A stretch of DNA of 61,373 bases from a bacterium (lineage in GTDB: Bacteria > Patescibacteriota > Minisyncoccia > Phycocordibacterales > UBA9973): the NCBI GenBank assembly GCA_037130055.1, contig JBAXTS010000002.1, forward strand, positions 1-61,373, read 5' to 3'. Both the position numbers and the translations under genes were made by a program. Shown here one piece after another: positions 3,630 through 61,373 of this stretch (its first letter is position 1; each line of letters opens with the position of its first letter). The notes under the pieces were generated by a model. That model did not search any database. It had not been told where the DNA came from and was given only the letters and a program-made list of their open reading frames with translations.

Positions 3630-3945
3630 ATTTTTCTTCCTTTTTCTCCATTGTACTACCATGTTCCATTCCTTCCAAATGAAGCATCCCGTGGATAACT
3701 AAGAATCCAATAAATTGTTCAAAAGTTCTGCCGAAATTTTTAGCTTCTTTTCTGATTACTGTAGGACATAGAATTATCTCGCCCAAATCTATGCGCAGAG
3801 AAAAAGACAATATGTTTGTAGGCTTATTTATTTTTCTATATTTATTATTTAAGAATTTGGATGTTTTTTCGTCAACATACGCGACAGAAAGGGAATATTT
3901 CTTTCCCAAAATATCATTCTTTATTATAGAAAAATCTTTTTCCAT
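3538..3945 (-). CDS. ybeY: rRNA maturation endoribonuclease YbeY
   Basis: HGMLHLEGMEH zinc-binding motif; size fits the family; the 3' end overlaps the ftsA start. Confidence 0.85.
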   Translation of the reverse strand: MEKDFSIIKNDILGKKYSLSVAYVDEKTSKFLNNKYRKINKPTNILSFSLRIDLGEIILCPTVIRKEAKNFGRTFEQFIGFLVIHGMLHLEGMEHGSTMEKKEEKYDQKYFCGNRCGIVHDSCRGRRVYKRRKIS

Positions 3946-59568: not shown

Positions 59569-59603
59569 ACATTTTTGATGTATCCTATAGTAGTTTACCA
59601 TAT

Positions 59604-59677
59604 TGGGGGATCGTCTAATGGTAGGACCGGAGCCTTTGAAGCTTCTAATTTTGGTTCGAATCCAAGTCCCCCAGCCA
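59604..59677 (+). tRNA. tRNA-Gln (anticodon UUG), CCA encoded
   Basis: Hand-folded: U1-A72 acceptor TGGGGGA/TCCCCCA, anticodon loop CTTTGAA, T-loop TTCGAAT, then GCCA. Confidence 0.9.
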
Positions 59678-61153
59678 AGTTTCAGAATTCGTTTTTTCGC
59701 CAAAATGCGGAGCGTCGCAAAGCGACGCGACGGGGGTTTCCGCCAGAATTCGCCAAGGGTTTTTGAAATCCAAAAGAAGCGAGCGGGACGCGAGGCGGGG
59801 GTTCGAGCCAATCTTTTTAAGAAAATCTCTTTTGGCTTCGAGATTTTCTTCGGAAGCGATAATTATGGCTTGGTTACTGTCTAAAATGAATTGACGAGAA
59901 AGTTCGAGCCAGCGATTGCCTTTTCGTTCAAAATCTTTCAATTTCTCTGAAAAATCAATCTTTTGGTTGAGGAGCTTTTGCTTCTTGCCAATATACTCCT
60001 CGCTCGTAATAGTGCTGTCCAAATGAGCGTCAAGAAGCCTGTCTAGTATCTCCTCAACACTTTTGATTTGATTTTTTAGATTTTGAACGAAAAGGGCGTC
60101 AGAGTGGAAACTGCTCGCTTGTCCTTTTTCGAGTTCAGCGAGCATGAATTCTTTCCACTCGGACGGCAAAGAAACTTTTTTGATAATGTCATTCGCTTGT
60201 GCGGCGAGGAATTCTTCGCGAATATATTTTTGTGTGCAGACACCTTTCTTTTTGGTGCAACGATAATACACATGACCTTTCTGCACTTCGCTTGTGATAC
60301 CACATCCACATTCTTCGCACAAAAATATTCCGCGAAAAACATGCTTGCTAATTCCTCGCTTCATCGGATGAGCGTTCCTCGCCGATACTTCCGCGCACTT
60401 ATCAAAAAGTTTCTTTGAAATCGCTGGCTCGTGCTTTCCTTGGTAAAGTTCTTTATTGAATAAAAACATTCCATAATAAAAAGGATTTTTCAATATCATC
60501 TGCGTGTTTGAAACAGTGAGAACTTTACCATTTTTAGACAGTAAGCCCTTTTGGGCGAGCAAATTCCTTGTATCTTTCAGAGAATAATTTCCAGTAGCGT
60601 AGACTTCGAACATTTTTCTGACGAGGCGAAATCTTTCAACATCGGGAATAATTTTCTTATTCAATTTATCATTCAAATATCCAGTCGGGGCTTGTCCGCT
60701 TTGTTCGCCTCGTCTTACTTTTTGTCGAAGTCCACGCTTCACATTCTCTGAAAGATTATCAACATAGTATTTGCTCTGCCCAAAAGCAATATTTAACATA
60801 AACTTACCTTGTGGCGTAGCGTCGAACCAAAATGTCGGGAATTTTAGCTCTTTAATAATGCCAAGGTCACACAGATAGATTATCTTTCCACCATCAATAC
60901 TGTTTCTCGCCAATCTATCGGGGTGCCAAGCTAAAATTCCTGACGCTTTGCCTTTTTCTATGAGCGAGAGCATATTGTTGAAAATAGGTCTGCCCGGCTC
61001 TTTGGCGGTCTGTGATTCAACGAAAGTTTCAACAATCTCCAACTGCTCTCGCTCGGCAAATTCTTTCAACTCGTCAATCTGCGACTCAATACTCAAAATC
61101 TGACGATCTGGCTCGTCGGTAGATTTACGAGCATATAGAAAGAATTTGTTCAT
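59645..61153 (-). CDS. large serine recombinase (resolvase/invertase N-terminal domain, recombinase domain and zinc ribbon)
   Basis: N-terminal YARKSTDEPDRQILSIESQ (catalytic Ser context), DRLARN, and a Cys cluster CEECGC...YYRC. The C-terminal roughly 55 codons are encoded by IR-L and the tRNA-Gln 3' end. Confidence 0.9.
   Translation of the reverse strand: MNKFFLYARKSTDEPDRQILSIESQIDELKEFAEREQLEIVETFVESQTAKEPGRPIFNNMLSLIEKGKASGILAWHPDRLARNSIDGGKIIYLCDLGIIKELKFPTFWFDATPQGKFMLNIAFGQSKYYVDNLSENVKRGLRQKVRRGEQSGQAPTGYLNDKLNKKIIPDVERFRLVRKMFEVYATGNYSLKDTRNLLAQKGLLSKNGKVLTVSNTQMILKNPFYYGMFLFNKELYQGKHEPAISKKLFDKCAEVSARNAHPMKRGISKHVFRGIFLCEECGCGITSEVQKGHVYYRCTKKKGVCTQKYIREEFLAAQANDIIKKVSLPSEWKEFMLAELEKGQASSFHSDALFVQNLKNQIKSVEEILDRLLDAHLDSTITSEEYIGKKQKLLNQKIDFSEKLKDFERKGNRWLELSRQFILDSNQAIIIASEENLEAKRDFLKKIGSNPRLASRSLLLDFKNPWRILAETPVASLCDAPHFGEKTNSETWLGDLDSNQN
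59672..59803. repeat. inverted repeat, left copy (IR-L)
   Basis: Perfect match to the reverse complement of 61239-61370, checked base by base. It starts in the last 6 nt of tRNA-Gln (CAGCCA) and contains the hairpin GCGTCGC-AAA-GCGACGC. Confidence 0.9.
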
Positions 61154-61238
61154 AGAAAAAGGTTTATGTTAAATATTGATAATTATTCGCTTCCAGATTG
61201 GCTCGCAAAACGAAGTTTTGAATGATGTACTCATCATA

Positions 61239-61370
61239 AACCCCCGCCTCGCGTCCCGCTCGCTTCTTTTGGATTTCAAAAACCCTTGGCGAATTCTGGC
61301 GGAAACCCCCGTCGCGTCGCTTTGCGACGCTCCGCATTTTGGCGAAAAAACGAATTCTGAAACTTGGCTG
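61239..61370. repeat. inverted repeat, right copy (IR-R)
   Basis: Reverse complement of 59672-59803; the window ends 3 nt later. Confidence 0.9.
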
Positions 61371-61373
61371 TGT

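Follow-up and report, generated by a model that had tools for sequence, protein, structure and literature searches.

A large serine recombinase gene between perfect inverted repeats at a tRNA-Gln gene: the probable tRNA-proximal module of a small integrative island in Patescibacteria

Serine-integrase elements, such as those of the Listeria phage A118 (LI integrase), phiC31 and Bxb1, encode a large serine recombinase (LSR) with Resolvase, Recombinase and zinc ribbon domains, and carry a pseudo-palindromic attP beside the integrase gene, with a short core common to attP and attB. A recognition motif lies about 16-23 bp from the attP centre and 5 bp nearer in attB; the structural model by Rutherford et al. 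(2013) places the motif of the zinc-ribbon domain (ZD) at positions 16-24 in attP and 5 bp nearer the centre in attB, and characterised serine integrases recombine attP with attB only, attL x attP not being permitted (PMC3783163). The locus described here, an LSR gene abutting a tRNA-Gln gene in Patescibacteria (candidate phyla radiation), resembles these elements in its domains, in the att-like site and short core beside the gene, and in the motif spacing, but differs in several respects. The island is not phage-borne and spans only 3-10 kb in relatives; its target appears to be the 3' end of a tRNA, with the T-loop as the shifted motif; a second, complete attP-like site is present in inverted orientation; the last 44 integrase codons lie inside an att arm; and similarity to solved LSRs extends over the catalytic domain only. 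Moreover, whereas the studied integrases use a quasi-symmetric attB, the B' side of the attB reconstructed here is not conserved.

Islands integrated in tRNA genes (Islander/TIGER) and tycheposons share several traits with the present family: an integrase gene abutting the tRNA, restoration of the tRNA 3' end by the element, a far junction marked by a short direct repeat of that end (here seen in relatives), variable cargo with frequent defence genes, and possible tandem insertion. An LSR is used by 27 of 937 tycheposons, and such islands are typically driven by tyrosine integrases (PMC4383910). The island considered here differs from them by a duplicated segment of just 4-6 nt.

A serine recombinase gene also lies between inverted repeats in the Hin/Gin/Cin/Pin systems, hin itself being located within the H segment. 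These enzymes of about 190 aa, with a C-terminal HTH, act on sites of about 26 bp with an enhancer and switch the expression of flanking genes, both orientations being common, whereas here a 502-aa LSR lies between 132-nt arms whose outer ends resemble att half-sites at a tRNA, with one orientation in 76/76 spanning contigs. The shufflon relies on a tyrosine recombinase (Rci) and multiple short sfx repeats, in contrast to the serine recombinase, single arm pair and single gene of this locus. In the yeast 2-micron plasmid, the FRT sites of FLP lie within 599-bp inverted repeats that separate two unique segments, one of them encoding the recombinase. The ring that we infer for the present element would likewise consist of two segments between two long identical inverted repeats holding the recombinase target, and in both cases the repeats are far longer than the minimal site. 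FLP, however, is a tyrosine recombinase that acts on identical sites and serves copy-number amplification, whereas the present enzyme is a serine integrase with apparently differentiated sites; no replication genes are seen, and the element is found integrated. Our literature searches found no description of this recombinase-island family, nor of a double inverted-repeat structure with recombinase and cargo modules each bracketed by inverted arms.

Repeat, recombinase gene and tRNA in the window

The window, i.e., the whole stretch of 61,373 nt that was analysed, reaches its end within the locus, which comprises the following features.

59604..59677, + strand: tRNA-Gln(UUG) gene (ARAGORN; Rfam tRNA, 55.9 bits)
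59645..61153, - strand: LSR gene, 502 aa, reading through IR-L and stopping in the tRNA-Gln antisense
about 59647-59671: putative B half-site of the left junction (attL), formed by the 3' part of the tRNA
59654-59661: T-loop GTTCGAAT of tRNA-Gln, 18 nt from the junction
59672..59677, + strand: core CAGCCA, made up of the two final acceptor-stem nucleotides, the discriminator base and CCA
59672..59803, + strand: IR-L (arm X1), putative P'-type half-site and 3' end of the recombinase gene (codons 451-494), supplying the last 6 nt of the tRNA
59712..59728: GC-rich hairpin GCGTCGC-AAA-GCGACGC, 40 nt from the junction
61154..61238, - strand: 85 nt preceding the recombinase gene, with its 5' UTR and presumed promoter
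61239..61370, - strand: IR-R (arm X2), P' half of a putative internal, inverted, complete attP-like site, with core TGGCTG at 61365-61370
61314-61330: mirror copy of the hairpin, within IR-R
61371..61373, - strand: first 3 nt of the P arm (tgt, the reverse complement of aca), where the contig breaks

The inverted repeat is perfect, as the preliminary description had stated: IR-L and IR-R measure 132 nt each, are 100% complementary and enclose 1435 nt. IR-L does start with the last six nucleotides of tRNA-Gln (CAGCCA, 59672-59677). A 48-nt piece of the arm occurs twice in the window, at the two arms only, for a chance expectation of 0, and the tgt that follows IR-R at the end of the window does not extend the repeat. 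The arms are GC-rich and contain the hairpin that had been noticed, the 200-nt interval 59600-59799 having a GC content of 0.525 versus about 0.28-0.44 in the flanking host DNA; the further remark that the recombinase is more GC-rich than its host holds clearly for the arms and modestly for the gene body (0.34-0.455). RNA folding of the tRNA with IR-L gave nothing beyond the small hairpin (z = -0.35), a promoter and terminator scan of the arms and the upstream 85 nt gave nothing above shuffle expectation, and an Rfam search of the repeat and the distal non-coding block returned tRNAs only, a match to CRISPR-DR20 being dismissed as weak (19.7 bits versus a gathering score of 42).

The encoded protein has an integrase-type LSR architecture, with Resolvase (PF00239, residues 5-150, E=1.6e-21), Recombinase (PF07508, residues 177-256, 5.9e-14) and Zn_ribbon_recom (PF13408, residues 273-316, 1.1e-07) domains, the last two scoring above the gathering score; it is not a small invertase of about 190 aa with a C-terminal HTH. 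In an alignment of 18 homologues, R9, S11 and T12 of the catalytic motif YARKSTDE (with Ser11) are invariant, as is the Cys cluster C279/C282/C299/C306, and PDB matches are confined to the N-terminal catalytic domain of LSRs. Codons 451-494 coincide exactly with IR-L, residues 493-494 (WL) are the antisense of CAGCCA, and the last 8 of the 502 residues, together with the stop codon, are the antisense of tRNA-Gln. The estimate that IR-L encodes about 45 C-terminal residues was thus close, and, as had also been pointed out, the same protein is encoded in either orientation of the interior. The upstream region 61154-61238 is 94-98% identical at the nucleotide level to those of three relatives (L003, L083 and L093); it presumably contains the promoter, and a simple consensus scan found no sigma-70-like promoter in it.

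Relatives in Patescibacteria, P arm and far end

Searches with the LSR returned 7983 proteins at E<=0.001, the best 120 of which are 61-97% identical over the aligned regions. Relatives occur in at least 587 stretches of a species-representative genome collection and in at least 581 metagenome stretches, and a scan of viral contigs for an episomal form gave just 2 real, distant relatives. The tRNA-arm-gene-arm layout recurs in about 160 fetched Patescibacteria loci, including mid-contig cases (contigs of 100-775 kb) and one complete genome (L002, L003, L032, L057, L093). Where enough flank is available, the gene is almost always bracketed by a repeat, which measures 50-160 nt (219 nt in L048) and is usually at least 98% identical. 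In the 74 loci where a tRNA abuts the repeat, it overlaps the outer end by 5-7 nt; the tRNA types found there are Gln, Asn, Ser, Gly, His, Trp, Ala and Asp, and the type follows the recombinase clade. Both arms carry the end that is specific to the target tRNA of the clade, i.e., CAGCCA for Gln, CCGCCA for Ser, GGAGCCA for Asn, GCTCCA for Gly, ACCCCA for His and CTGCCA for Trp. All the junctions seen are tRNA 3' ends or P arms, with no copy at a non-tRNA site. Because the shorter repeats of relatives (54-110 nt) retain the outer part only, the outer 50-60 nt or so constitute the conserved portion. The hairpin is conserved as a structure across the family: 22 distinct stem sequences were counted among 48 unique arms, most of which have the start of the stem at 39-42 nt from the boundary, and stems of at least 6 bp are found in 40% of arms versus 4.7% of shuffles.

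On the promoter side, the flank is conserved in all clades, and conservation reaches 41-430 nt past the arm. Of the 93 contigs spanning both arms, 65 have this P arm next to the IR-R-type arm and the tRNA next to its counterpart. The P arm reads GTTCAGGAGACA, followed by the core CAGCCA, in L003, L005 and L093. A P arm was searched for inside the window and is absent; the terminal 3 nt diverge from the tRNA side and agree with the P arm of close relatives, and the closest relative (L083, 99%) matches the window at 98.3% from its last base inward, then continues into the P arm. Past 61373, the P arm of the window would continue as TGTCTCCTGAAC... / TGTCTCCTGAACAAAATCCGAAC....

The order seen in relatives is promoter-side arm, P arm, non-coding block, cargo module, then an inverted copy of the non-coding block with P arm and core, and finally host DNA. 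This far-end junction (P arm with 4-6 nt of the core) was found in 17 of the 72 loci with enough flank, about 1.1-7.7 kb beyond the promoter-side arm, in searches covering 3-4 kb of flank per locus and 10 kb in L164. The far-end copy of P arm and core is always inverted and 98-100% identical to the internal one, including in L093 (97% identical LSR) and L164, and its core is in direct orientation relative to the tRNA core in all 17. From attL to attR, the islands measure 3-10 kb, bounded by a direct core repeat of 4-6 nt. Conserved host genes lie on the tRNA side, in the order dnaX, tRNA-Gln in 10 loci, and the distal side contains an XRE HTH gene and variable cargo, often restriction-modification or GmrSD defence genes. 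Near-identical recombinase modules can be accompanied by different cargo, as in L083 versus L093. In L083, no far-end copy was found within 2.7 kb; its neighbouring gene encodes an inositol monophosphatase and could be a host gene.

In 59 of 74 loci, the tRNA arm has a motif GTTC[GA]A at 18 nt from the boundary, and in 55 of 74 the P arm has it at 23 nt from the junction; the offset of the P arm relative to the tRNA arm is +5 in 65 of 68 loci. At the sequence level, this GTTCGAA spacing matches the published attB/attP geometry, and the motif may be what the ZD reads. In the consensus, the X and P arms are only weakly symmetrical. The inverted site is kept in the Gln, Asn, Ser, Gly, His and Trp clades, with LSRs down to 51-55% identity to that of the window. 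The distal flank was also considered as a truncated tRNA copy, a reading rejected since its GTTCGAA is 23 nt away from the junction in every clade, instead of 18 nt. Four loci matched a pattern with the P arm on both sides; they were rejected as circular forms, the two P flanks being different, and two are weak pattern matches, while the other two (L049 and L077, both in one MAG) fit a tandem array.

A probable integrative island

What the window contains is probably the module nearest the tRNA in a site-specific integrative island of small size (about 3-10 kb), from a family common in Patescibacteria. The analysis recovered neither an unoccupied tRNA site nor a circular junction; the distribution of the family and the structure of its junctions suggest that the island is mobile. 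The LSR would integrate a circular form of it at the tRNA-Gln 3' end through putative attP x attB recombination, with a crossover at the outer edge of the repeat. The core is common to the tRNA junction, to the internal site and, in relatives, to the far-end junction, and the crossover probably lies within its first 4 nt (59672-59675), because of the far-end junctions, where 4-6 nt of core are kept. The tRNA side would then provide a B-type half-site, its ZD motif being the universal T-loop GTTCGAAT, and IR-L a P'-type half-site restoring the last six bases of the tRNA. IR-R would be the P' half of the second complete attP-like site (P arm-core-X), inverted and placed between the recombinase gene and the cargo module, i.e., a small XRE HTH gene and variable genes. 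By analogy with relatives, the far side of the cargo would consist of the inverted non-coding block, P arm and core joined to host DNA, forming attR. With both internal and far-end inverted copies, the excised ring would be made of two modules, as in the 2-micron plasmid, separated by two inverted repeats of about 0.25-0.4 kb containing attP. The copies of each repeat would be kept near-identical by recombination or gene conversion, which would permit occasional module inversion, and the recombinase module would normally be fixed convergent with the tRNA.

A more speculative extension, which we hold to be possible rather than probable, considers these islands as natural 'double-attP' elements, in which the ends of the recombinase module are P'-type and those of the cargo module P-type. 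The tRNA junction (B arm with any right arm) would still be attB-like, so that, without a directionality factor, the LSR could flip modules, stack islands and swap cargo, and the use of the T-loop as the shifted ZD motif would allow retargeting between tRNAs. If so, cargo swap would constitute a natural recombinase-mediated cassette exchange, redistributing defence genes across Patescibacteria, and the family would retarget between tRNAs by changing inner half-site contacts only. The tandem arrays (L049/L077) and the purpose of the internal attP fall outside the canonical rules, because the studied integrases accept attP x attB only. Current directionality rules account neither for an inverted attP inside the element nor for the fact that both pairs of repeats evolve in concert.

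How Patescibacteria, with their tiny genomes, acquire genes is poorly understood. The present family, found in hundreds of species-level genomes, offers a sequence-defined vehicle that may move restriction-modification and other accessory genes into tRNA loci. It also provides many natural sets of enzyme, attP and attB, in which the attB motif would be the universal T-loop and the 5-bp shift is directly readable, so that rules of site recognition and retargeting can be tested; such sets could yield new integrases for genome engineering.

Orientation of the module and competing readings

The preliminary description had favoured an invertible switch or shufflon over a tRNA-integrated element. 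Under such a reading, the LSR would flip the 1435-bp interior at appreciable frequency as its main function, e.g., to toggle its own expression or that of a neighbour. What that description had said of the repeat stands, i.e., it is genuine and recombinase-related, with the gene inside it and a protein unchanged by inversion. Concerted evolution of the arms is in line with a switch too: arm pairs are 100% identical in 36 of 81 elements (median 99.3%), and arms are closer to each other than to those of any other element in 53 of 72. Because arms are identical within an element and diverged between elements, ongoing recombination or gene conversion between them is required. In six contigs (L007, L091, L096, L019, L024, L113), the tRNA lies on the promoter side, and the broken contigs comprise 20 standard and 6 flipped ones. 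Assemblies often break at the arms, 61 of 162 loci starting less than 500 nt upstream of the ATG and 51 of 162 ending less than 150 nt after the gene, as mixed orientations would cause; and if the tRNA junction were attB-like, given its unconserved B' side, recombination of attL with the internal attP would give back the same types of site and would be reversible.

Against this, no contig that covers both arms is flipped where a tRNA can be seen on one side: in all 76 of them, the recombinase is convergent with the tRNA. One further spanning contig has tRNAs on both sides. Coexisting orientations, as expected of invertases, are not seen among these contigs. Each of the flipped contigs ends at the second arm or short of it; they were rejected as proof of inversion, since mis-resolution of the repeat would also produce such contigs. 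Even with no inversion, an assembly will break at a repeat that exceeds the assembler's k, and assemblies of such genomes break at these loci because two repeats abut. The enzyme is an integrase-type LSR, for whose studied members attL x attP is not a permitted pairing, and the interior consists of the recombinase gene only, with no conserved gene under control and no regulated outward gene evident. A single fixed orientation and a direct-repeat att site further right, named beforehand as observations that would speak against a switch, are both seen in relatives (76/76 and 17/72), which are tRNA-integrated islands. A switch as the main function is unlikely, and this reading is only partly supported. 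Modules have inverted at least on evolutionary time, as indicated by the inverted cargo module in a spanning contig (L020) and by the existence of flipped recombinase contigs (L007/L091, L096, L019, L024). L113 and L048 hint at chromosomal inversions between tRNA isoacceptor genes.

It is less probable still that the internal site is a relic, i.e., a functionless, inherited inverted attP duplication homogenised by host recombination, with one att site that matters. Some members cope with its loss or decay: the distal arm is absent in L004 and L001, arm identity falls to 86-93% in several loci, and the inner part of the repeat is dispensable, as the shorter repeats indicate. However, the inverted site is present in every clade, the X arm and the block of non-coding sequence and P arm are each kept as inverted pairs, and the +5 motif spacing of the P arm is retained in 65 of 68 loci. 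This persistence of site and spacing suggests that the inverted site is under selection.

A transposon-like nature of the 1.7-kb arm-gene-arm unit, with the 132-bp repeats as its termini and the LSR as its transposase, is very improbable. Many homologues do lie on contigs of 1.6-2.4 kb, about the size of the unit, one MAG contains two copies, and the repeats are terminal to the gene, but such short contigs are expected from assembly breaks at repeats. The repeats are not the ends of a unit inserted in many targets: a tRNA 3' end always lies on one side and, on the other, the conserved P arm rather than an arbitrary target (65/93), conservation extending 41-430 nt past the arm.

Finally, IR-R is almost certainly not a fold-back or collapsed repeat at a contig end, the artefact that the preliminary description had allowed for. 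It does lie 3 nt from the window's edge, and neither the exact LSR protein nor its dnaX-like neighbour is on record elsewhere. However, dozens of independent assemblies, made with various assemblers, show this architecture in mid-contig, as does a complete genome; the 1.7 kb of the window recurs at 95-98% identity in L083 and L093, with both arms present in L093; and the terminal three bases match the P arm instead of the tRNA side.

The inverted repeat and its recombinase gene

The two arms at the end of the window, reported in the preliminary description as perfect 132-bp inverted repeats, were recovered by both sequence reading and a repeat finder (132 nt each, 100% complementary, spacing of 1435 nt). 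The description had also proposed a search for further arm copies; within the 61-kb window, a 48-nt arm piece occurs at the two arms only, and the chance expectation is none. The locus comprises the following features.

59604-59677, tRNA-Gln(UUG), placed by ARAGORN
59645-61153, minus strand, recombinase gene, the sole long ORF (502 aa), with Resolvase, Recombinase and Zn_ribbon_recom domains
59672-59803, left arm
59712-59728, hairpin GCGTCGC-AAA-GCGACGC of the left arm
61154-61238, presumed promoter region of the recombinase gene ('promoter' being a label only)
61239-61370, right (promoter-side, or distal) arm
61314-61330, mirror copy of the hairpin in the right arm

The three domains identify the 502-aa protein as a large serine recombinase (LSR). 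As described previously, the left arm opens with CAGCCA, which the ARAGORN placement confirms as the final six bases of the tRNA-Gln, and it encodes the LSR C-terminus, corresponding exactly to codons 451-494. CAGCCA read antisense gives residues 493-494 (Trp-Leu), and the antisense strand of the tRNA also supplies the final eight codons and the stop. The arms are indeed GC-rich (0.525, versus about 0.28-0.44 in the host DNA around) and each carries the hairpin. All factual points of the preliminary description are thus confirmed, the 'promoter' label of 61154-61238 excepted.

Across the family, both arms carry a GC-rich hairpin roughly 40 nt from the junction. Its conservation is structural, with 22 distinct stem sequences and stems of at least 6 bp in 40% of arms versus 4.7% of shuffles; the window hairpin has many compensatory stem variants among its relatives. 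As it falls in a non-conserved part of the LSR tail, the constraint acts on nucleic acid, not protein, and a bidirectional terminator or insulator between the tRNA and the recombinase is a reasonable guess.

LSR homologues number 7983 proteins at E ≤ 0.001, the best 120 being 61-97% identical over aligned regions, and many lie on 1.6-2.4-kb contigs. Their C-termini are conserved through '...GSNPxLA...FKxPWxILAE', then 'WL', and many end in tails such as 'DSNQ...SYH', which are tRNA genes translated antisense. In species-representative genomes, at least 587 stretches were confirmed among the 600 matches listed, almost all in Patescibacteria MAGs; the locus sample (L numbers below) was made of 80 loci from such genomes and 80 from metagenomes. 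Almost all loci with sufficient flank have the LSR gene enclosed by an inverted repeat (50-160 nt long, or 219 nt in L048; identity usually at least 98%), and a convergent tRNA gene lies at the 3' end of the LSR gene. For example, L002 has perfect 103-nt arms, spaced 1436 nt apart, inside a 318-kb contig, and other loci lie inside long contigs (L003, 157 kb; L093, 264 kb; L057, 775 kb) or in a complete genome (CP174360.1, L032). Since the arrangement recurs in such contexts, and L083 and L093 match the terminal 1.7 kb of the window (98.3% and 95.1% nucleotide identity), the possibility raised in the preliminary description, a fold-back or collapsed repeat as the source of the right arm, is ruled out. 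Viral contigs yielded just two relatives, at 49% identity, and the family is otherwise absent from them; the elements are, therefore, not prophages.

Recombination junction and island architecture

In 74 loci, the final 5-7 nt of the tRNA fall within the repeat, and both arms carry the target tRNA's own ending (Gln CAGCCA, Ser CCGCCA, Asn GGAGCCA, Gly GCTCCA, His ACCCCA, Trp CTGCCA). Target type tracks the recombinase clade, identity to the window LSR being mostly 57-99% for Gln-associated enzymes, 59-62% for Asn and 51-57% for Ser and others. Shorter repeats (54-110 nt) retain the outer part. Outside the promoter-side arm, all clades share a flank, '...GGATTTT..GAAAAAAGTTCGGATTT..(about 12 nt)|core', here called the P arm, where the core is the tRNA 3'-end bases at the junction; the last three bases of the window, tgt (reverse complement aca), are its beginning.

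The motif GTTC[GA]A, which is the T-loop in the tRNA, lies 18 nt from the junction in 59 of 74 loci, and it recurs in the P arm at 23 nt in 55 of 74. Of 68 loci with the motif found on both sides, 65 show an offset of exactly +5. In a structural study of a Listeria integrase, the zinc-ribbon-domain motif occupies positions 16-24 of the attP half-site and lies 5 bp nearer the centre in attB (PMC3783163), a geometry that the spacing observed here closely fits. This match marks the tRNA side as B-type and the distal flank as P-type half-site, with the centre of the site at the outer repeat edge.

The block beside the promoter-side arm, consisting of a non-coding stretch (nc), the P arm and the core, recurs further out in L164 and L093. 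Among loci whose distal flank reached 900 nt or more, a systematic search found this far-end copy in 17 of 72, inverted in every case, 98-100% identical over a 57-66-nt probe, and retaining 4-6 nt of core before host sequence. Reading in the tRNA orientation gives tRNA(B)-core-X1-[recombinase, toward tRNA]-rc(X2)-core'-rc(P)-rc(nc)-[cargo]-nc-P-core-host, X1 and X2 being the left and right arms. The element is, therefore, an integrated island, with the following sites.

attL (B|X), at the tRNA, island junction
attR (P|B'), at the island far end, junction with the host
direct repeat of the core, 4-6 nt, at both island ends
complete attP-like site (P|X2), inside the island, inverted

Complete islands span 3.0-9.5 kb, with 1.0-7.3 kb of cargo and an outer repeat of 106-242 nt (92-100% identity). 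Because some far-end copies hold just the first four core bases, crossover probably occurs within these (59672-59675 in the window). In an excised ring, if formed, the recombinase and cargo modules would be separated by two inverted repeats of about 0.25-0.4 kb, each containing attP. In relatives, the mobile unit extends past the repeat, the island far end lying beyond the promoter-side arm. The direct-repeat att site that might have lain further right is present in the same 17 loci, including L093; the window itself ends 3 nt past the right arm. The window thus probably holds the end nearest the tRNA of a small integrative island driven by the LSR, and the repeat would arise from an internal inverted attP.

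The non-coding block beyond the P arm is GC-rich, 100-430 nt long, and forms long imperfect hairpins (L021 3300-3737; L093 2590-2740; L003 3520-3740), with loops such as GGGGGTCTGGGGG or CCCCCCACACCCCCC. Sigma-70-like hexamers lie upstream in some loci. The block is common to Asn- and Ser-targeting elements (L021 versus L036, 400 nt at 78%), and an Rfam search with it gave no match.

Evidence on inversion of the recombinase and cargo modules

The preliminary description read the 1435-bp interior as an invertible switch. An arm nearly always resembles its partner in the same element more closely than it does arms from other elements: for arms of at least 100 nt (n = 81), they are 100% identical in 36 elements and at least 98% in 61 (median 99.3%), and the within-element pair is closer than to any other element in 53 of 72. 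The outer repeat behaves likewise. Such concerted evolution needs recurrent exchange between arms, which makes inversion physically plausible. In L020 (981-3073), whose contig spans both island ends, the cargo module (XRE HTH gene first) is reversed relative to the other 15-16 complete islands, which is real evidence of a module bracketed by inverted repeats having inverted.

Inversion of the recombinase module is less well supported. Among contigs spanning both arms with a tRNA, 76 have it at the LSR 3' end, none is flipped, and one (L048) has a tRNA on both sides. Six contigs do show a promoter-side tRNA (L007, L091, L096, L019, L024, L113), but all break at or before the second arm, as repeat-caused misassembly would also produce. 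A repeat longer than the assembler word size yields mis-joined or truncated contigs without inversion, which accounts for the breaks in the sample, where 61 of 162 loci start less than 500 nt upstream of the gene and 51 of 162 end less than 150 nt after it. Moreover, the serine integrases studied so far recombine attP with attB only, whereas the locus offers attL and attP. On the other side, the B' side of the reconstructed attB has no conservation, and in MAG VGJO01 the 3' flank of L049 (5478-5597) equals the distal P flank of L077 (1-121). The pair fits a tandem stack of two islands at one tRNA-Ser and implies a non-canonical pairing (attP with attL or attR). Overall, the preliminary interpretation is partly supported. 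Measurable inversion of the recombinase segment is possible, if somewhat doubtful, and switching is unlikely to be its main function.

Known systems, cargo and rearranged members

Domain and catalytic-motif tests place the window enzyme among LSRs, its similarity to solved LSR structures being limited to the catalytic domain. The integrative island works like tRNA-integrated genomic islands, which are typically tyrosine-integrase-driven (PMC4383910); among tycheposons, LSR-bearing tRNA elements are a small minority (27 of 937). The element is neither a Hin/Gin-type invertase system nor the suggested shufflon, nor a TIR-bounded insertion sequence, a defining feature of each having been tested and found absent. 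A literature search found no report of an internal inverted attP within a double inverted-repeat layout, the T-loop as a shifted attB motif, concerted evolution of both repeat pairs, or the breadth of this family in Patescibacteria; the 'two attP sites' matches examined were engineering or mechanistic studies, not natural elements.

The neighbours on the tRNA side are conserved host genes; the window shares the order Dus ... dnaX, tRNA-Gln with nine further loci. Distally, a gene for an XRE-type HTH protein of 65-72 aa almost always comes first and is followed by variable genes, most directed away from the recombinase. These include restriction-modification genes and methylases (type I HsdM/HsdS, type III Mod, Dam-like and EcoRI-like), nucleases (GmrSD, Mrr, Schlafen), a multicopper oxidase, a Na/Ca exchanger, a radical-SAM/SPASM enzyme, a CAAX protease, and many proteins without a Pfam match. 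L083 and L093 have near-identical recombinase modules and different cargo, their shared sequence ending about 42 nt into the P arm. A type I R-M genomic island was reported in 2025 in MAG nzgw456, the MAG of L068, without mention of a recombinase, tRNA or repeats (PMC12455944). On the Parcubacteria contig of L164 (14062-16716), two neighbouring genes encode TFIIB-like domains (PF08271 Zn_Ribbon_TF and PF00382 TFIIB), which is unusual for bacteria.

Several members are decayed or rearranged. L004 (2810-3040) lacks the promoter-side arm; its recombinase arm adjoins 21 nt duplicated from the tRNA-Gln 3' end, followed by about 140 nt of unrelated sequence and an intact tRNA-Gln, which looks like the scar of an earlier insertion. 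L113 (2712-4537) holds a recombinase pseudogene (stop after 419 aa) with diverged X-type arms, flanked by tRNA-Gln(CUG) at its promoter end and tRNA-Gln(UUG) at its 3' end; recombination of the internal site with a second tRNA-Gln gene, i.e., a chromosomal rearrangement, may explain it. In L002 (4027-7541), the tRNA-Gln and cassette are jointly inverted with respect to the otherwise conserved order Dus...dnaX, tRNA-Gln, the P arm is not recognisable, and the repeat ends 17 nt before a tRNA without encoded CCA. The distal site of L008 (about 3790-3830) has its central 19 nt (GTTCAGGAGACA plus CAGCCAA) inverted in place, and an unrelated palindrome, CTCGTGCTAGCACGAG, replaces the outer P arm. 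Finally, each copy of the 219-nt inverted repeat of L048 (3640-3858 and 5344-5562; 92.7% identical) contains a complete tRNA-Ser(GGA) gene, one to either side of the recombinase.
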